From assembly GCA_016839585.1 (NCBI GenBank), contig JAEOTZ010000072.1, positions 87,355-151,354 on the forward strand: a stretch of 64,000 nucleotides of DNA, read 5' to 3'. This stretch comes from Promethearchaeota archaeon (GTDB lineage: Archaea > Asgardarchaeota > Lokiarchaeia > Sigyniarchaeales > SOKP01). Below, piece by piece: positions 48,161 through 55,889 of the stretch. A program made the translations under genes and the position numbers. The notes beneath the pieces were generated by a model. It worked only from the letters and a program-made list of their open reading frames with translations. It did not search any database and was not told the origin of the DNA. Each line of letters begins with the position of its first letter. Position 1 is the first letter of the stretch.

Positions 48161-49177
48161 TTAATATTTTGAAGGAGTCTTTGTTTTAATTTTGTATTTT
48201 GGGATAGTTTTAGCCTTTCTTAATTCTTTTTCAAAATCTCTTTTTTCTCTTAGAAACCTCTCCTTGTCTCTTTCTAATTTTTCTCTTTCCCGTTTTATTG
48301 TATTTTTCTCATTATGTATCATTGATTTTTCTTTTTCCAATTTTTTATACTCATTATTTAGTCTTCTAAGTTTTTCCTCTAAGTCAGGAATTTTGCGTGT
48401 TAATGTGTAATACTGATCTTCTGCAAGAGGAACTTTTCTATTTAACTCTTTTAATCTTGCTTGTTGTTCCCGTTTTCTCTTTTCCAAAGCGTTTCCATCC
48501 CTTTCTACTTTATCTCTATATTTTTTCAGATCTACTTTTTTCTTATCAATTTCACTAGCTTTTAGATTTAAATCTTTTATTTTATAATGAGCTTTTTCTC
48601 TATCTTCTTTTAATTTTTGCTTTTCATCAGAAATTCGATTTTTTTCACCAAAAATCTCCCTCCTAAAGTTATCAATTTCCGTATTTAAATTATCTCTTTC
48701 TTTGGTTAGATGCTTAATTTCGTTCCTTAAATCCATTAATTTATTTTCTAAATCGTTAATAGTTCTCTTTAAAGCACTTTCTCTTCTTTCCATGTTAGGT
48801 ATTTTAGTTTTAATTCGTTTAATCCTTTCTAAATCATCTCGAATTCTTTCTAATTGTCTTTCTTCCTCATCCAAATGATGTTTTTTATCAAAAATATTAT
48901 TTTGTAGGTTAGTTATTTCATCTCGTAATTTATCACGATTATTAGAAAGATTTCTTATCTCTAATTCGGTCTGTTTTCTTTTCCTCTCAAGCTCATTTAG
49001 GTTGTTATTATACCCTTCCATTTGTTCGAGAACTTTCTGCCATTCACCTTTTTCTTTATTTAACTTTTTTCTCTCTTCTCTAATTTTATTTAGCAATTTC
49101 TTATCTGGTATTAATTCTAAATACTCATCTGGTGTTTTTTCATGAATTTCATATTTAGGAGGTATCTTATCTTTCAT
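48161..49177 (-). CDS. Long coiled-coil protein, unknown function
   Basis: About 290 aa of near-continuous K/E/R/L heptads; no ATPase motif or TM. Confidence 0.7.
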   Translation of the reverse strand: MKDKIPPKYEIHEKTPDEYLELIPDKKLLNKIREERKKLNKEKGEWQKVLEQMEGYNNNLNELERKRKQTELEIRNLSNNRDKLRDEITNLQNNIFDKKHHLDEEERQLERIRDDLERIKRIKTKIPNMERRESALKRTINDLENKLMDLRNEIKHLTKERDNLNTEIDNFRREIFGEKNRISDEKQKLKEDREKAHYKIKDLNLKASEIDKKKVDLKKYRDKVERDGNALEKRKREQQARLKELNRKVPLAEDQYYTLTRKIPDLEEKLRRLNNEYKKLEKEKSMIHNEKNTIKREREKLERDKERFLREKRDFEKELRKAKTIPKYKIKTKTPSKY

Positions 49178-49360
49178 ATTTATTCATTTTTCTTAAAAAT
49201 ATATTATTAAACTTAAAAATGGGTTGATTAATAAAGATTTTAATTTATTCTTATGAGATATTTTATTAAAATCTATTTATATAGAATAATTTCTATTATT
49301 TATATAAAATCATCCCTAAATAAAAGTAAAAGTCAATTATTAAATAAATGGTGTAGAATG

Positions 49361-49744
49361 ATGGGATTTGATGACGAATTTGATGAGGATTTCGATGAAG
49401 AATTAGAATTTGATGAAGATTTAGAAGAATTAAGTTCTAAAACTCCAGACGATAAAGTTGAATCTAAAACTCCTGTTGTTAAAACTATTCCTGAAGGGAA
49501 AAAGATTTCAGTATATTTTATGTCTACTATTGGTCCAGGTGAGAAAAAACAAAAATTACTTATAAATTCAGGAAATCATGTTGGAGATATTAAAGAAACT
49601 GTAGCAAATTTATTTGGTTTAGATCCTGTTGATTTTCATTTATCTTCAGGTGGAGTAACTATGGATGAGAGTTTTCCTTTAAAAGATTATAATGTGAATG
49701 ATGGAGATGACATACTTTTAATTCCTGCAAGTACTGCTGGTTAA
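49361..49744 (+). CDS. Ubiquitin-like modifier, copy 1 (acidic N-tail, C-terminal ...STAG)
   Basis: Beta-grasp pattern VGDIKETV..LFGL....FHLSSGG..MDE..PLKDYNVNDGDDILL; terminal Gly. The upstream ORF-track extension is AT-rich promoter-like DNA; GGTG SD before ATG 49358/49361. Confidence 0.85.
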   Translation: MGFDDEFDEDFDEELEFDEDLEELSSKTPDDKVESKTPVVKTIPEGKKISVYFMSTIGPGEKKQKLLINSGNHVGDIKETVANLFGLDPVDFHLSSGGVTMDESFPLKDYNVNDGDDILLIPASTAG

Positions 49745-49788
49745 ATCGTTCAAAAGAGTAAATGTTTTTAAAATTAGAGCCTCTATTT

Positions 49789-50583
49789 TTAATCTTTTTC
49801 TTTTCTTGATGGGATTAGAGCAATTTCATCATCATCATCTATATCATAGTCTTTTATTTGTGAGTTTTCGTGCAATAATATACCTCCAGAGGATAACAGA
49901 AAATCTTTTAAATTGTAATTAAATAATATCCCTACTCTTTCTTTCACTACACTTATTAACTCAATAGTGTTAACAATAATTATTTTCGTTTTTTCGCCCG
50001 GCTCAACTAATGATCTTATATAAATTCGGAGCTGGTCTTCCATTTTAATAGGATTCATTGGTGGTATATATATTATCTCCTCATCAGTTTTATCCTTGCT
50101 TTTCAACATATTTTCTATTAAACTTTTCCTCTCATTTGGGTCAAAATATAACATTTCCCTAATAAACACTATTTTATCCATTTTTGATAATCCTAAAAGG
50201 TTTATTTTATCTAATTCTTCCTGATTAAAAACTGAAAATATATATTTGTCTATTACAGGAATATTTTCATGTGATTCATTTGATGTAATGTATTCTTCTA
50301 TTGAAGGCATTGTATCGATATAATTTTCAATAATATCTACTATTTTCTTTTTAATCGGCTTTTGTTTAGCAAAATATTTCTTTTCTCTTATCTTTCTGTC
50401 TTGACTATCTTTGGAGTGTAAGACAGTATAGATAGTACTTGTGGATAATACTGCGACACTACCAATAGTCAAGAAGAGAAATAAAGGAATACTTTCTATC
50501 TGTAATAGGAAAAAAAACATATAGATTAAAAGAAAAATACTATAAAGAGTTATAACACTTAAAATTCTGTATTTGTTTCTCAT
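49789..50583 (-). CDS. 2-TM membrane protein with C-terminal ubiquitin-like domain lacking terminal Gly
   Basis: Two N-terminal TM; C-terminal PGEK...VKERV..LF...FLLSSGG...ENSQIKDY...LIPSRKEKD aligns to both Ubls. Confidence 0.8.
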   Translation of the reverse strand: MRNKYRILSVITLYSIFLLIYMFFFLLQIESIPLFLFLTIGSVAVLSTSTIYTVLHSKDSQDRKIREKKYFAKQKPIKKKIVDIIENYIDTMPSIEEYITSNESHENIPVIDKYIFSVFNQEELDKINLLGLSKMDKIVFIREMLYFDPNERKSLIENMLKSKDKTDEEIIYIPPMNPIKMEDQLRIYIRSLVEPGEKTKIIIVNTIELISVVKERVGILFNYNLKDFLLSSGGILLHENSQIKDYDIDDDDEIALIPSRKEKD

Positions 50584-50668
50584 AATTTTTTAATTAAAGT
50601 ATTTTCTGAATTTTAAATAAATAATTTAAAATATAAATTCCATTGGAATAAAATTGGAGTTTTTATAT

Positions 50669-51340
50669 TCATACACCTTGAATTGATTTTTTAACTTTAG
50701 AATATTTCTCTGAGTCTAATTTAAATCCATTTCTATTTTTAATTTTTTCAATTTTAATTAATTTCAGGTTTTTTAAAATATCGATATATTTCTTAATAGT
50801 ACTGTGATTTTTTTTTAAGCTATTTGCTATATCTGTAATTTTTAATGCTTTATTTTCTTTCTTCATAAAATTAATTAATTTTTGAACGATTTCTTTATTT
50901 AAATAAAAGTAAAACTCATCAAGTTCAGAATTTGACTCAAATTTGAAGAAAATTCTATGATTATTGATTTTTTTTGATCGAATAAATTGAAATTTTTCTA
51001 GACATGATAAATGCCATAAAGCTTGATTACTTCCGATATTTAGAGCTTTCATTATTCCATTAATATTTGAAGGTTTTCTTTTAATATAATTAAATATCTC
51101 ATTCCTTTTTGGATGCTCAACGATATTATTTTTCATTAATCTAGTTCCCGGGATAATAACTCGCCTTTTAATTAAATCCTTTAAGATTAATTCTATTCTA
51201 TTCTCATTTATATTAGGATTGTACCTTACTCTATTATTTATAAATGATATGATCTCTCTTATTGAAAAGAAAGTTTTTTTTGTTAAATACTCTCTTACTA
51301 ATTCAAGAACAACAGATTCTGCATTATCCAGAAAACTCAT
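50669..51340 (-). CDS. Multi-winged-helix (ArsR-like) transcriptional regulator
   Basis: HPKRNEIFNYI...WHLSCLEK and ITDIANSLKKNHSTIKKYIDILKNLKLI. Confidence 0.78.
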   Translation of the reverse strand: MSFLDNAESVVLELVREYLTKKTFFSIREIISFINNRVRYNPNINENRIELILKDLIKRRVIIPGTRLMKNNIVEHPKRNEIFNYIKRKPSNINGIMKALNIGSNQALWHLSCLEKFQFIRSKKINNHRIFFKFESNSELDEFYFYLNKEIVQKLINFMKKENKALKITDIANSLKKNHSTIKKYIDILKNLKLIKIEKIKNRNGFKLDSEKYSKVKKSIQGV

Positions 51341-51614
51341 AAGCCTATACTTTCACTATGTTAATAAATCTAATTTTTATAATTATATACTCTCTCTAAA
51401 ACCATAATTTATGTATTATATATATTAATAGACATTCATACAATTTATACTATAATTTCTTAAGAATCCAATGTGTTTCTTTTTATTTTTGATAAAACCT
51501 TAAAAAACTTCAAAATCATTCCATAGGGTTTTATTATATCTTCTTAATGCCATTTTATTAAGTTTTAAAAAAAAATTATAAAATTTTAAAAAACCAAAAT
51601 TGGAAGTGATTTGA

Positions 51615-51947
51615 ATGAGTTTTGATGAATTTGATGAAGATTTGGTTGGGGAAGAACCAGTAAAATCTAAAACTCCCGCAACTAAAACCCCTTCAGCAGG
51701 AAAGAAATTAACTCTATATTTCATGTCAACTATTGGTCCTGGTGAAAAGAAGGAGAAATTAACTGTGAATGATGCTAATCATGTAAGTGATATTAAGCAA
51801 ACATTAGGGAATTTATTTGGACTTGACCCTAATGATTTTCATATATCATCTGGCGGAGTTACAATGGATGAAAATAGTCAATTAAAAGACTATAGTGTAA
51901 GTGATGGAGACGATATTCTTTTGATCCCTGCGAGTACTGCTGGGTAA
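51615..51947 (+). CDS. Ubiquitin-like modifier, copy 2 (C-terminal ...STAG)
   Basis: 63/82 identity to copy 1 over the core by hand alignment; first gene of the E1-E2-JAMM-RING run. Confidence 0.88.
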   Translation: MSFDEFDEDLVGEEPVKSKTPATKTPSAGKKLTLYFMSTIGPGEKKEKLTVNDANHVSDIKQTLGNLFGLDPNDFHISSGGVTMDENSQLKDYSVSDGDDILLIPASTAG

Positions 51948-52027: not shown

Positions 52028-53263
52028 ATGGTGATTATATTGGATAAGGATTCAGACTTTTTTACAAAAGAATTATCAGTGGAAGAGAGAGATTTATACG
52101 ATCGTCAATTCCGTCTTGAAGGCTGGTCCCAGAAATTAGTAAAAAACACCAGAGTATTAATAGTAGGAGTTGGAGGTTTAGGATGTGAAATTGCTAAAAA
52201 CTTAGCCATGCTTGGTGTTGGTCACTTAGATCTCGTTGATTTAGATATTATTGAACATTCTAATTTGAACCGTCAAATACTTTTTACAGGAGCGAAGATA
52301 GGAGAGCCTAAAGTAGTGGTTGCTGCTAGAAAACTAACTGAAATTAATCCTAATGTTATTATTAAGGGATATCATACTTCTCTAGAAAGGTTAAATCCTG
52401 CTGTATATCAAGCTGCTGATGTTGTTATAGGAGGTCTTGATTCTATGAATGCACGACTTAACTTAAATGCACAATGCATAAGGTTTAAAAAGCCATTAGT
52501 AGATGGAGGTGTATCTGGTTATTATGGTCACGTATACACTATCTTCCCTTATCAAAATGCTTGTTATGAGTGCAATCCATTACCAGTAGTAGAGGGTGAT
52601 GAGATGGCTGCTTGTACAGTGGTTGGGGTCCCCAGAAAAAGGATTCATTGCCTTTTTAAAGGAGATATGGCATTTAAAGAAAACTTTGACAGAGATCCTA
52701 ATCCAAAAGATATAAATGATATTAAGTTTATTCAAAAGGTCGCAAATGAATTGGTGAATAAACATAATTTCTTACCTGAATACACAGAAGATGACATTGT
52801 GAAAATTATTGATAGACATGATCCTGGTATAATAACTATAAATGCAATTATTTCTGCTTTACAATCACATGAAGCAATAAAAATTCTACATTGGAAAGAA
52901 GGTCATAAAGGATTAGGTGAACCTATTAAAAGTTATGTTATCTTTAATGCAATGACAATGAAATTTTACCATATTGAGAAACATAGGAATCCAGAATGTT
53001 CTCAGTGTGGTAGAAGTGTTCGAAGAGTATCTATAAAATTAAGATCTCAATCACCTTGCATAAATATAATTAAAATATTAGAGAAAAATGGTTTTGAATT
53101 GGATCCTGATTATGAACCTGTTCTAACTTTATTAGATTTCAATGATATTAAAATTGTAGATTTAGAAAAGAATCCAATTGAAAATGGGTTAAGAAATTAT
53201 GAATTCATAACTAGTGCTGGATTTAAAGATGGAGAGATTTTTGTAACCTTAAAATTAAAATAA
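52028..53263 (+). CDS. Ubl-activating enzyme E1 (ThiF domain; UBA3/UBA2-like catalytic Cys region)
   Basis: LYDRQ, VGVGGLGCE, D.IEHSNLNRQ, CYEC...ACTVVGVPR..IHC, CSQC; ~85-aa C-terminal extension. Confidence 0.92.
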   Translation: MVIILDKDSDFFTKELSVEERDLYDRQFRLEGWSQKLVKNTRVLIVGVGGLGCEIAKNLAMLGVGHLDLVDLDIIEHSNLNRQILFTGAKIGEPKVVVAARKLTEINPNVIIKGYHTSLERLNPAVYQAADVVIGGLDSMNARLNLNAQCIRFKKPLVDGGVSGYYGHVYTIFPYQNACYECNPLPVVEGDEMAACTVVGVPRKRIHCLFKGDMAFKENFDRDPNPKDINDIKFIQKVANELVNKHNFLPEYTEDDIVKIIDRHDPGIITINAIISALQSHEAIKILHWKEGHKGLGEPIKSYVIFNAMTMKFYHIEKHRNPECSQCGRSVRRVSIKLRSQSPCINIIKILEKNGFELDPDYEPVLTLLDFNDIKIVDLEKNPIENGLRNYEFITSAGFKDGEIFVTLKLK

Positions 53264-53339
53264 AAATTTAATCAAAAAATATTTTCTATAAAAATTTAAA
53301 ATAAAAAATTAATTAATATGAAAAAAAAGGGTTGAGAAT

Positions 53340-53867
53340 ATGAGTATAAGAAGTAGTAGAATTTCCCAAGATTTTGGGGGATTAAAAAAAATGTTAAAAG
53401 AAGGATCTATTGTTCAATTAAAACCTTTTAATCCTAAAAAGAAGAGTATTGATCACTTAGCCATCTCTTTTAGAGGACCTAAAGGGACAGTATATTCAGG
53501 TGGTCTTTTTAGATTGGAAATGAAATTTCCTGCTCAATATCCTAAACAACCTCCTTTTGTAAGAATGCATACTCCAATTTGGCATCCAAATTTTTGGCCA
53601 AAACCGAGTGAATATAAAGGACAGAGAAATATTTGTTTAGCATTAGTAGATCCCTCTTTAGTTGGTAAAAAAGGTGGATGGAGTCCATCAAAAACCGCTG
53701 TCACGATTGTTCAAGCAATAATTGCTATGTTAAACACCCGTGGTAAGTACGTAAATCCAACAGATGTTTTTAATAAAAAAGCAGCATTAGAAATGATTAA
53801 AAATCCTAAATTTTTCGATAAAAAAGTCAAAAACTTAGTTAAAAAGTATGCTAATGAGAAATGGTGA
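53340..53867 (+). CDS. Ubiquitin-conjugating enzyme E2 (UBC fold)
   Basis: GPKGTVYSGGLF, FPAQYPKQPP, TPIWHPN...ICL...WSPS. Confidence 0.93.
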   Translation: MSIRSSRISQDFGGLKKMLKEGSIVQLKPFNPKKKSIDHLAISFRGPKGTVYSGGLFRLEMKFPAQYPKQPPFVRMHTPIWHPNFWPKPSEYKGQRNICLALVDPSLVGKKGGWSPSKTAVTIVQAIIAMLNTRGKYVNPTDVFNKKAALEMIKNPKFFDKKVKNLVKKYANEKW

Positions 53868-54690
53868 AAATTTAATGAATTATGATAATAATAATAATAA
53901 TAGTAATTTAATCAAAGAAGCAATAAAACATAAAATTAAGGAAAAAATTAAAAAAGAACTGCTTGAAGAGATATATACTGAATTAAAATCAGAAGAAGAA
54001 TTGATAGATGAAATAACTTCTGAATTTAGTCAAAATAAGCCTTCAGATCATACCAAAAAAATTAACATTACACATGAGAATTCATCAAAAGAATCAGAAA
54101 TAGCATATATTAAACATAATGACACTGAAGCCAAGATAACTATAACAGTTAAAGCTATTCTTAAGATAGCAAGCCATTCTTTAAAATATGCTCACTCTAA
54201 GATCCCAAGGGAGGATTGGGTTGAAGTGATAGGGTTACTTGCCGGCAATTTAGATAATTCTGGGCGTATTCTTCATATAGAAGATGCTTATCCAATGGGT
54301 CATGGTACAGCTGTTTATGCTGAAATTAAAGATTATAAAAATTATGTGAGAGCTTTTAAAGATATTAAGAGGAATAAATTATACATCTGTGGATGGTATC
54401 ATTCTCATCCATCTTATGGGTGTTTTATGTCTAATGAAGATATAGGAACTCAAGCTAGATATCAAAAATTATGGGATAAGGCTATTGCTCTTGTTATAGA
54501 TCCATATCAAATTGATGGTACTTCATTAGGATTTGAGATTTATCGTGCAAATATCAGAACAAAAAAATGGTTTTCTTTACCATATAATATAAAAGGGTAT
54601 TTAGATGTTCGAATGTTGCCTGAAATCTTGGCATTTATGAATCCTATTATTGAGGGGAAACCTGTTTACTTGGAATATGATGAAGATTAA
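53848..54690 (+). CDS. JAMM/MPN+ isopeptidase (Rpn11/CSN5-like)
   Basis: EVIGLLAG, GWYHSHPSYGCFMSNEDI..Q, ALVIDP; start may be 53875. Confidence 0.92.
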   Translation: MLMRNGENLMNYDNNNNNSNLIKEAIKHKIKEKIKKELLEEIYTELKSEEELIDEITSEFSQNKPSDHTKKINITHENSSKESEIAYIKHNDTEAKITITVKAILKIASHSLKYAHSKIPREDWVEVIGLLAGNLDNSGRILHIEDAYPMGHGTAVYAEIKDYKNYVRAFKDIKRNKLYICGWYHSHPSYGCFMSNEDIGTQARYQKLWDKAIALVIDPYQIDGTSLGFEIYRANIRTKKWFSLPYNIKGYLDVRMLPEILAFMNPIIEGKPVYLEYDED

Positions 54691-54719
54691 ATTCTTTAAT
54701 ATGTGGTGATTCTTAAACC

Positions 54720-55889
54720 ATGGTGAAAACTAAAACTGTTGCGATATCATTAATTATCTTTTTAATCATAGGCATAATCCATGGTGCTATTTTAGACTCA
54801 TTTAATGTATTTGTAACTTGGTTATTAATTGGTTTATGGATAATATTTACTATTAAAATTTTAGAAAATGTAAAACGTCACCGCGAATTTAATTCACCAC
54901 ACAATACTGCCTTTTTTGTCATAATCCCTTTATTTATCGGAATTTTTTACTCTATTTGGGGTTATTTTACCGGTATTCTGGCTGAAAACCTTCTAGAGGG
55001 TTCAGATCTATATTTTAGTTGGTGGAGTATCATTTTTGGATTTCCATTTGTATTATATGGCGCTCATTCTTTATATCGTTGTTTTAAGAAATATAATGTT
55101 ATTTATTTTGGAACGAAATCAATAAAAGCTAGGTTATTTGGATATATTTTAACCTTTATTGTTCTTCTTTTTATAATATTTTATTGGATTATTTTTTATA
55201 CTGTTATTGAATTCTATAATTTTCCATTAATCCCGCTTCACTTCTCTGTAGATCTTAACCTTTTATTATTATTCATAATTACAATATTGATATTAATTGT
55301 TTTTGGATTTATTAGTTCACAAAGACCATTGCCAACATTAACTCGTGATTATATAGCACAACGTACTAGGAGAATAAATTCATTAACATCTCCTACTGCA
55401 TTATCTTCGCCTAGAAGACAAAGACAAACTGTAAGTACAACAATTAGATCAACACCAACATCTAGAAATATATCTCGAACAACAAGATCAAGTACTCAAT
55501 CATCAAGAACAACACCAACTTCACATAGACAAACAAATAGAACAAGAACAACAAAAACTACCCAAACTAGAAGTGTAAAACCAACATCAAAAAGTCGAGA
55601 TCTAAATAGATATAAGCCAATAGGATCATATCTATCACAGGACGATTTTAAATGTATTTTTTGTTTTAAATTACCAAAACTTCCTGAGGATAGAGGGAGA
55701 GGGATAATCTTGTGCCCACATTGTAGATACCCAGCACATGCAGATGAATTTAAAGATTGGTTACGAACCTCAAATCTGTGTTCACGATGTAGTACCCCTA
55801 TTCCATCTACCTTTAAAAGTAATCCTAGGATAATTAGTGTAAAGGATTATTTAATTATCTATAGACATTTTTTAAGAAAAAAGAACTAG
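54720..55889 (+). CDS. Polytopic membrane protein with C-terminal RING-variant finger (putative E3 ligase)
   Basis: About 6 TM, S/T/R-rich linker, CIFC-x16-CPHC-x4-HADE..W....CSRC. Confidence 0.8.
   Translation: MVKTKTVAISLIIFLIIGIIHGAILDSFNVFVTWLLIGLWIIFTIKILENVKRHREFNSPHNTAFFVIIPLFIGIFYSIWGYFTGILAENLLEGSDLYFSWWSIIFGFPFVLYGAHSLYRCFKKYNVIYFGTKSIKARLFGYILTFIVLLFIIFYWIIFYTVIEFYNFPLIPLHFSVDLNLLLLFIITILILIVFGFISSQRPLPTLTRDYIAQRTRRINSLTSPTALSSPRRQRQTVSTTIRSTPTSRNISRTTRSSTQSSRTTPTSHRQTNRTRTTKTTQTRSVKPTSKSRDLNRYKPIGSYLSQDDFKCIFCFKLPKLPEDRGRGIILCPHCRYPAHADEFKDWLRTSNLCSRCSTPIPSTFKSNPRIISVKDYLIIYRHFLRKKN

Follow-up and report, generated by a model that had tools for sequence, protein, structure and literature searches.

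A conserved membrane-anchored ubiquitin-like protein of Lokiarchaeia and its predicted partnership with a winged-helix protein

An archaeal ubiquitin gene cluster is described here that carries, beside its free modifiers and their enzymes, a membrane protein whose ubiquitin-like (Ubl) domain has no conjugatable end. The window analyzed, a 64,000-nucleotide (nt) stretch of contig JAEOTZ010000072.1 (assembly GCA_016839585.1, positions 87,355 to 151,354), is AT-rich (GC content 25-34%) and belongs to a 3.45-Mb, 99% complete genome of a Lokiarchaeial (Promethearchaeota) lineage. The gene in question, here called TM-Ubl (protein P0001), lies next to a gene encoding a winged helix-turn-helix (wHTH) protein. 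No closer relatives of eukaryotes are known than the Asgard archaea, whose ubiquitin systems are examined as precursors of the eukaryotic system. TM-Ubl is a conserved Lokiarchaeial membrane protein bearing a permanent, non-transferable copy of the cell's own Ubl, and it looks more like a sensor in the regulation of the archaeal ubiquitin system than like a modifier. We propose, with a probability of roughly 0.5, that it serves as a membrane tether or co-regulator of the wHTH factor of the cluster and that its dead-end Ubl domain is a cytoplasmic input or handle.

The transmembrane (TM) topology of TM-Ubl was examined by hydropathy and structure prediction. Kyte-Doolittle analysis revealed two hydrophobic stretches (residues ~7-28 and 32-55) separated by a 7-residue loop, and the AlphaFold2 (AF2) model, computed with 117 homologs in the alignment (mean predicted local distance difference test score, pLDDT, 70), placed helices at residues 2-26 and 32-60, forming a TM hairpin. 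In this model the hairpin was followed by a disordered basic linker (58-107), helices (108-162), a further linker, and a beta-grasp domain (184-258). Across 120 homologs, the mean number of Lys and Arg residues was 3.5 at the N-terminus, 0.4 in the 7-residue loop, and 9.0 in residues 56-85 after the second TM helix (TM2). On the basis of this distribution, the positive-inside rule assigns both ends of the protein to the cytoplasm, and the Ubl domain is predicted to face the cytoplasm and not the exterior. An earlier sequence-only reading of this DNA had described two N-terminal TM helices and a position downstream of the wHTH gene on the same strand; hydropathy and AF2 agree on the helices, and 85 nt separate the two genes.

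Residues ~184-258 of TM-Ubl have the motifs PGEK, LSSGG, ENSQ.KDY, and LIP in common with both free Ubls of the cluster, and the domain is 36% identical over the alignment to the free Ubl at 51615-51947(+) and 33% identical to that at 49253-49744(+). A six-frame search of the organism's own genome with residues 185-264 returned only these two free Ubls (E = 1.5e-16 and 5.3e-14). The Pfam model PF00240 scored TM-Ubl at 19.5 bits (E = 8e-4), below the curated cutoff of 25.4, whereas the free Ubl P0002 scored 25.8; a precomputed PF00240 match is carried by many TM-Ubl homologs. The AF2 model of residues 184-258 is a beta-grasp fold (beta-beta-alpha-beta-beta) with pLDDT 83-91, and Foldseek matched it to ubiquitin, ISG15, NEDD8, and the Dsk2 UBL with TM-scores of 0.85-0.92 and root-mean-square deviations of 1.1-1.6 Å, the ubiquitin of Caldiarchaeum (6fno_D) being among the matches. 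The anchored Ubl domains form one clade (SH-aLRT 100) separate from both free Ubls.

The C-termini distinguish the anchored domain from the modifiers: TM-Ubl ends in ...LIPSRKEKD, whereas the free Ubls end in ...LIPASTAG. No Gly after LIP and no terminal Gly were found in 120 homologs, and S259, R260, and K261 of the tail are kept in at least 90% of 117 homologs. A conjugatable modifier carries a C-terminal Gly, exposed or exposable, for E1 adenylation, which TM-Ubl lacks; an integral (type 2) UBL-domain protein, such as TMUB1/2, Herp, or members of the Rad23/Dsk2 class, has a ubiquitin fold within a larger protein without a conjugatable end, which is the arrangement found here, and a UBL that binds the proteasome, Cdc48, or ubiquitin receptors. 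TM-Ubl thus resembles a type-2 UBL-domain protein and is a paralog of the archaeal Ubl modifier that is missing that modifier's defining feature. These results bear out the sequence-only reading, which had presented the protein as a membrane-anchored, non-conjugatable paralog of the cluster's Ubl with shared motifs and an SRKEKD end without Gly.

By our own reading of the alignment, the motifs common to TM-Ubl and the free Ubls fall on the L8 loop, the I44 region, and the V70 strand of the canonical ubiquitin face, and the retention of free-Ubl residues at this face fits the binding of common partners by the anchored domain. A decoy or competitive inhibitor would exploit exactly such likeness: the dead-end Ubl would sit unprocessed in the E1 adenylation site, on the E2 backside, or in the JAMM S1 site, damping or localizing pathway activity at the membrane. 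A close paralog of the substrate Ubl that keeps the shared face and has a conserved tail, one residue longer and devoid of Gly, would suit this role. However, the tail is basic (SRK) where the free Ubls have ASTAG, so that the part entering the E1 and JAMM active sites is the least similar, and a membrane-bound stoichiometric inhibitor would need an abundance equal to that of the enzyme. We regard inhibition as improbable; it explains neither the middle domain of TM-Ubl nor the wHTH protein, to which we now turn.

A search at E <= 1e-3 yielded 410 TM-Ubl homologs, mostly 264 amino acids (aa) long; the named ones are all from metagenome-assembled genomes of Promethearchaeota or Lokiarchaeota, and a few are annotated as 'ubiquitin-like protein'. 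The 116 aligned homologs are 63-94% identical to the window protein. Conservation was highest in TM2 (0.90), followed by the Ubl domain (0.82) and the middle domain (0.75), and the invariant residues are located in TM2, the middle helical domain (HD), and the Ubl domain. The number of homologs, their fixed length, their identity, and the invariant residues indicate that the family is under constraint; this conservation ruled out a pseudogene or chance open reading frame (ORF).

The sequence-only reading had taken the segment between the membrane and the Ubl domain for a helical spacer. It proved instead to be HD, a conserved, autonomous domain of ~85 aa that is present in many other proteins. 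A word-index search found no longer proteins carrying HD, but an exhaustive, profile-free search of representatives did: residues ~75-165, in some matches together with TM2, resemble the extreme C-termini of large proteins that comprise a signal peptide, beta-helix/NosD, Ig-like, LamG, TSP3, or beta-propeller domains, one TM helix, and a cytoplasmic tail. The named proteins of this kind are Lokiarchaeotal. In these tails HD stands at the end; it follows the TM helix and a basic stretch directly, in some cases as a tandem, or else comes after a Cys-rich B-box/RING-like finger, and the single TM helix that precedes it in surface-type proteins has the IGS..S....Y motif of TM-Ubl TM2. TM-Ubl contains the same succession of a TM helix with IGS..S....Y, a basic juxtamembrane stretch, and an HD of ~85 aa. 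HD was detected in 80 of the 101 genomes of the class, at 1-19 copies each; the genome of the window has one clear copy and one weak copy.

HD did not resemble known families. No Pfam match above threshold was obtained for P0001 or for any of the 24 HD sequences, and the sub-threshold matches were to TRI4_N (4 of 24, best E 9e-4), Cue1_U7BR (3 of 24, best E 0.021), and other families in single instances. The Cue1_U7BR match, which would have identified HD with the E2-binding region of a membrane-anchored factor of endoplasmic reticulum-associated degradation (ERAD), was at noise level and was rejected. Against the PDB, profile searches gave E >= 0.33 and Foldseek E > 3, and the best VIA-align result (Z 4.1) was to generic helical bundles. 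These findings suggest that HD, whose fold is unassigned and need not be new, is an undescribed, Lokiarchaeia-specific mobile domain on the cytoplasmic tails of type-I membrane proteins.

Receptor-like type-I proteins with beta-helix, Ig, or LamG ectodomains are represented by P0156, P0163, P0164, P0166, P0170, P0184, P0187, and P0188 and by locus L061:1209-5291. In their cytoplasmic tails, a Cys-rich finger (CxxH-x10-CxxC-x4-CxxC-x11-CxxC) with sub-threshold B-box/RING matches stands directly before HD, and such finger-plus-HD proteins could be transmembrane E3-like receptors. Homology of this finger to that of the TM-RING protein in the window was considered but is not claimed: MAFFT aligned the two out of register, and Pfam returned only sub-threshold B-box, RING, and zinc-ribbon matches.

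The wHTH protein belongs to a family (ArsR/HTH_24/HVO_0163 type) that is expanded in Promethearchaeota. It scored 28.8 bits against the SdpR model (cutoff 100) and 28.3 against ArsR/SmtB (cutoff 55), whereas its matches to Pfam HTH_5 and HrcA_DNA-bdg were above the cutoffs; these scores therefore place it, as a sequence-based assignment, in the ArsR-like wHTH superfamily but outside the SdpR and ArsR/SmtB subfamilies. An ESCRT-II/Vps25-like identity of the tandem winged helices was discarded, because Pfam, NCBIfam, and Atlas all indicated ArsR/HTH_24/HVO_0163 regulators.

The association of HD genes with wHTH genes extends far beyond TM-Ubl. The wHTH gene is the same-strand neighbor of TM-Ubl in 22/22 orthologous loci, and a same-strand wHTH paralog adjoins the HD gene in 11 of 12 other HD loci. 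Among a further 20 HD loci, 16 have one or two adjacent wHTH paralogs, 2 have the two modules fused, and 2 have none, so that an adjacent paralog is present in 27/32 of the other loci pooled, with 2 more fused. The overall tally of HD loci with a same-strand wHTH neighbor is 49 of 55, to which the two fusions are added. Both fusions are in genome G270 (L070:1847-5170(-) and L072:1778-6421(-)); each is one polypeptide, of 1107 and 1547 aa, consisting of a signal peptide, an ectodomain, a TM helix, HD, and a complete tandem-wHTH module. By this layout they are single-chain, membrane-anchored proteins of the transcription-factor type. On contig C29 of the window's own genome, a 533-aa multi-TM protein with an N-terminal zinc ribbon and weak C-terminal HD-like repeats (L009:232-1833(+), E 0.007) is followed after 3 nt by a 294-aa wHTH paralog (L009:1836-2720(+), E 7e-11).

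A model of the complex of HD with the wHTH protein supports their predicted binding. The interface confidence (ipSAE) was 0.73, 0.77, and 0.76 in the three runs, compared with 0.22 for the best of 3 controls, and the runs showed at least 93% contact agreement and a partner pLDDT of at least 84. The modeled interface on the wHTH protein comprises the first winged helix (WH1, residues 12-68) and the helix 103-117 of the second (WH2), and leaves the C-terminal winged helix, the part matching HTH_5 and HrcA, free. The HD residues at the interface that are most conserved or invariant are Y98, I115, F116, F140, R142, E143, Y146, and E151, and the corresponding wHTH residues are L19, L68, W109, K116, and F117.

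We then compared the gene order around TM-Ubl. In 22/22 loci, genes for FtsZ, PHP, a nucleotidyltransferase, and a coiled-coil protein are followed by the second free Ubl (Ubl2), convergent with TM-Ubl, and by the wHTH gene, after which comes the divergent Ubl-E1-E2-JAMM-TM-RING operon in fixed order. The conjugation operon is partly missing or rearranged in 3/22 loci, and others end at a contig edge. TM-Ubl and wHTH are intact in all three of the following: L004 (CP070831.1, GCA_020344955.1), where E1 is reduced to 91-136 aa; L043, where no Ubl or E1 follows the wHTH gene; and L049, where Ubl is followed by a 222-aa TM-RING fragment. Across 301 genomes sampled over the phylum, full-length TM-Ubl matches were confined to four genera of one family, and outside these genera only free Ubls matched. 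In sister genera and in a sister family, the coiled-coil gene stands directly beside the Ubl operon without wHTH, TM-Ubl, or Ubl2. These three genes, which lie between the coiled-coil gene and the Ubl operon, are present together or absent together. Since the core cluster is intact without them, they form an insertion into an older core, and conjugation as such does not require them. The long coiled-coil gene (48161-49177(-) in the window) is the direct divergent neighbor of the Ubl operon in the insert-less clusters, and because it adjoins the operon there it may belong to the ancestral ubiquitin cluster.

Non-coding DNA of the locus also connects TM-Ubl with the conjugation genes. Conserved blocks were found in the divergent spacer (51341-51614) and in the 85-nt spacer before TM-Ubl, and both spacers contain ACTYCAAWWTYATTCCAWWGG, oriented toward the downstream gene. 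The window holds two perfect matches to this 21-nt element, against 0.28 expected at <=3 mismatches, and these are the only two perfect matches in the whole genome, one upstream of TM-Ubl and one upstream of the Ubl operon; the two genomic matches with 2 mismatches fall inside unrelated coding genes. At <=2 mismatches, both sites are present in 16/22 orthologous loci and at least one in 21/22, whereas the element was not found in four related clusters without wHTH and TM-Ubl. A 16-nt version, unlike the 21-nt one, was not above chance at 3 mismatches, and a repeat search of 49100-51700 detected nothing besides the paralogous 5' regions of the Ubl genes. The occurrence of the element at both sites, and its absence from insert-less clusters, suggest common control of TM-Ubl and the conjugation operon by something that arrived with the insert, the most evident candidate being the wHTH protein. 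The divergent spacer has another conserved non-coding block at 51413-51460 in the window, which reads about TATATATATTAATAGGCATTCATACAATTTATAATATAATT in most orthologs and may hold the wHTH promoter or another operator.

The location of the gene also invites comparison with a membrane adaptor, which the sequence-only reading had put forward along with the decoy. In this role the anchored Ubl would recruit E2, JAMM, Cdc48, or proteasome/PAN receptors to the multi-TM, RING-like E3 in the manner of TMUB1/2 and Herp, with the wHTH protein as an accessory or substrate. TM-Ubl lies within the Ubl-E1-E2-JAMM-TM-RING cluster in all 22 loci, its Ubl domain shares the L8-loop, I44, and V70 face with the free Ubls, the conserved small-residue motif of TM2 suits helix packing with another membrane protein, and a eukaryotic precedent is provided by TMUB1/2, TM proteins with a cytosolic UBL in RING-E3 complexes (PMC7482433). 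Nevertheless, the core cluster dispenses with TM-Ubl in the sister genera and the sister family, and an adaptor leaves unexplained both the shared cis-element and the HD-wHTH partnership, which spans the family and does not depend on ubiquitin genes. That partnership, which the sequence-only reading had missed together with the middle domain, points to a tether with a regulatory role, in place of an adaptor or decoy or besides one. On this balance we consider an adaptor role possible but rather unlikely.

Under the tether model, the HD of TM-Ubl would hold the wHTH protein encoded upstream of it at the membrane. The HD tails would constitute a Lokiarchaeial family, each paired with its own tandem winged-helix paralog, and TM-Ubl would be the member dedicated to the Ubl pathway. 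The wHTH protein would act on the private 21-nt element before the Ubl operon and the TM-Ubl gene, producing a feedback loop. Within this scheme, the architecture, fold, rule-based topology, paralogy, absence of Gly, HD-wHTH co-occurrence and fusion, and shared cis-element are computational results, and the binding of HD to the wHTH protein has the backing of a model, whereas DNA binding by the wHTH protein at the element, the sign of the regulation, and the role of the Ubl domain in TM-Ubl are what we infer. In the sister proteins the input would come from an extracellular sensor. Because the outer loop of TM-Ubl is just 7 residues long, the Ubl domain is the sole candidate for its input. This domain may be bound by the readers or enzymes of free Ubl, sensing their occupancy and so reporting the state of the pathway, or may be a built-in handle by which Cdc48 or the proteasome frees or destroys the tether; in either case the outcome would feed back on both promoters. 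Given the natural HD-wHTH fusions, the complex might in addition work on DNA without leaving the membrane, like ToxR and CadC.

A related idea treats the anchored Ubl or the Lys-rich linker as an acceptor or primer, a preferred conjugation substrate, which would yield a chain at the membrane or mark the tether for turnover. The Lys-rich linker and tail, the position of the gene in the cluster convergent with a second free Ubl gene, and the finding that ERAD E3 ligases often target subunits of their own complexes (PMC7482433) are consistent with it. It would, however, be compatible with the regulatory model, and possibly a step within it, rather than an alternative; as an explanation in its own right we hold it to be slightly less probable still than the decoy. 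The adaptor, decoy, and acceptor functions do not exclude a tether.

Several points weigh against the tether model. A purely scaffold or adaptor role in the membrane E3 complex accounts for the Ubl domain equally well, and the position of TM2 as the most conserved segment hints at a further membrane partner. The ipSAE value is a model confidence, and its calibration, in which 58 of 80 solved complexes scored this high as did 2 of 110 mismatched pairs, is only rough because our own alignments were used. In the model HD lies on the invariant 'recognition helix' of WH2, and the wHTH protein may thus be partly a protein-binding adaptor and not a classical repressor. Finally, the 21-nt element could belong to a promoter or 5' sequence common to both genes and be recognized by a factor other than the wHTH protein.

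Comparison with known systems clarified which features of TM-Ubl are distinctive. Membrane-anchored ubiquitin-fold proteins (MUBs) attach to the membrane through a prenylated C-terminal CAAX box. The MUB/UBL3 proteins of eukaryotes, like TM-Ubl, place a ubiquitin fold that is not a classical modifier at the cytoplasmic face of the membrane; however, TM-Ubl has no CAAX and no Cys in its C-terminal domain and is anchored by two N-terminal TM helices. The UBX domain is marked by a conserved R...FPR loop contacting Cdc48/p97. No UBX Pfam match at E <= 0.1 and no FPR motif within residues 184-264 were found in TM-Ubl, and its fold search was led by ubiquitin, ISG15, and UBL entries. The archaeal ubiquitins of the Caldiarchaeum and Asgard E1-E2-RING-Rpn11 operons (PMC5654768, PMC6043591) and the free Ubls of the present genome share the homologous beta-grasp, but in TM-Ubl this domain is fused behind a membrane hairpin and a docking domain and has no Gly to adenylate. 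TMUB1/TMUB2 and HERPUD1 of the ERAD RING-E3 complexes (PMC7482433) likewise combine a TM anchor with a cytosolic, non-conjugatable UBL beside a membrane RING-type E3. This likeness is architectural only, with no sequence relation seen beyond the ubiquitin fold; the UBL of TMUB lies between N- and C-terminal TM segments and that of TM-Ubl is C-terminal, and these proteins, unlike TM-Ubl, have no HD and no partner of the transcription-factor type.

On the regulatory side, the closest bacterial parallels in tether logic are SdpI-SdpR, anti-sigma factors, and ToxR. SdpI-SdpR of Bacillus subtilis (PMC2910880) resembles the TM-Ubl/wHTH pair in that a membrane protein and an ArsR-type regulator share an operon and the tether gene is controlled together with the regulon, as is proposed for TM-Ubl. 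Anti-sigma factors and ToxR/CadC-type activators are comparable as cases of control at the membrane, with single fused chains in ToxR/CadC as in the HD-wHTH fusions. HD was unrelated to SdpI and anti-sigma domains in every search run, and the ubiquitin-like fold of the input domain sets TM-Ubl apart from all of these. The closest eukaryotic parallel, a conceptual one, is with yeast Mga2/Spt23 and mammalian Nrf1, reported as membrane-held transcription factors with a ubiquitin signal as a handle for the proteasome or Cdc48 (doi 10.64898/2026.08.31.748402); ubiquitin is attached enzymatically to those factors, whereas in TM-Ubl the Ubl domain is built genetically into the putative tether. A literature search found no description of an Asgard membrane-anchored Ubl or tethered wHTH protein, and the papers covered contained no archaeal integral, membrane-anchored UBL-domain protein. 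The HD family, the HD-wHTH fusions, the complex model, and the cis-element are new here.

Table 1. Features of the TM-Ubl locus, in window coordinates
Feature	Position	Strand	Basis
TM-Ubl gene, 264 aa, P0001	49789..50583	-	Open ORF, ATG start, translation; 410 homologs
TM helix 1 (aa ~7-28)	50500..50565	-	Hydropathy; AF2 helix 2-26; conservation 0.64 (moderate)
TM helix 2 (aa ~32-55), conserved IGS..(A/V).S....Y motif	50419..50490	-	Hydropathy; conservation 0.90
Basic juxtamembrane linker (aa 56-84), modeled as disordered	50332..50418	-	pLDDT <50 at residues 58-84
Helical domain HD (aa 85-168), predicted wHTH docking site	50080..50331	-	Alignment; all-helical model, pLDDT 71
Beta-grasp Ubl domain (aa 184-258)	49810..50034	-	Alignment, genome search, AF2 model, Foldseek
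Basic tail SRKEKD in place of the free Ubls' ASTAG, no Gly	49792..49809	-	Sequence, homolog alignment
wHTH protein, 223 aa, ArsR/HTH_24-type tandem winged helices, predicted HD partner	50669..51340	-	Pfam, NCBIfam, Atlas
First copy of the 21-nt cis-element, immediately 5' of a TATA-like box before the TM-Ubl gene	50640..50660	-	Motif search; conserved in orthologous loci
Second copy of the 21-nt cis-element, immediately 5' of a TATA-like box before the Ubl-E1-E2-JAMM-RING operon	51507..51527	+	Motif search
Free Ubl 1 (110 aa, STAG end), leading gene in the conjugation operon	51615..51947	+	Alignment, Pfam, synteny
Free Ubl 2, convergent with TM-Ubl; probable internal true start near 49361	49253..49744	+	Alignment; orthologs 121-145 aa
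E1 (ThiF), E2 (UQ_con), JAMM/MPN protease, multi-TM protein with Cys-rich C-terminal finger	52028..55889	+	Pfam, synteny

The neighboring pathway genes (Table 1) yielded further observations. The free Ubls of this lineage end in STAG, that is, in Ala-Gly and not Gly-Gly. Ubl-bearing relatives among P0143-P0183, of 217-372 aa and without TM helices, have the same Ubl at the C-terminus and end either exactly in STAG or with 1-6 residues more (STAGVL, STAGLKVLVR), extras that would need trimming. The listed JAMM ORF begins 20 nt before the E2 stop, overlapping it at 53848-53867 of the window, which reflects either translational coupling or a true JAMM start at a later ATG.

Taken more broadly, the HD proteins may represent an undescribed Lokiarchaeial signaling family with an ectodomain sensor, a conserved TM helix, sometimes a B-box/RING-like zinc finger, and an HD holding a separate or fused wHTH protein, in which one member would have adopted Ubl as its sensor and the ubiquitin system would regulate its own genes through a membrane-tethered factor; we advance this wider picture tentatively, as possible rather than probable. 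Several independent lines, namely paralog neighborhoods, natural fusions, a control-backed complex model, and a private cis-element, tie TM-Ubl to a partner of the transcription-factor type. If the proposal is correct, the locus would offer a testable case of ubiquitin-like signaling feeding back on transcription in an archaeon, and would establish HD as a new domain and the modules that contain it as a new class of transmembrane signaling in archaea, some with B-box/RING-like fingers on receptor-like proteins. In the wider picture, its logic would prefigure in a prokaryote that of membrane-bound factors under ubiquitin control, like Mga2/Spt23 or Nrf1.

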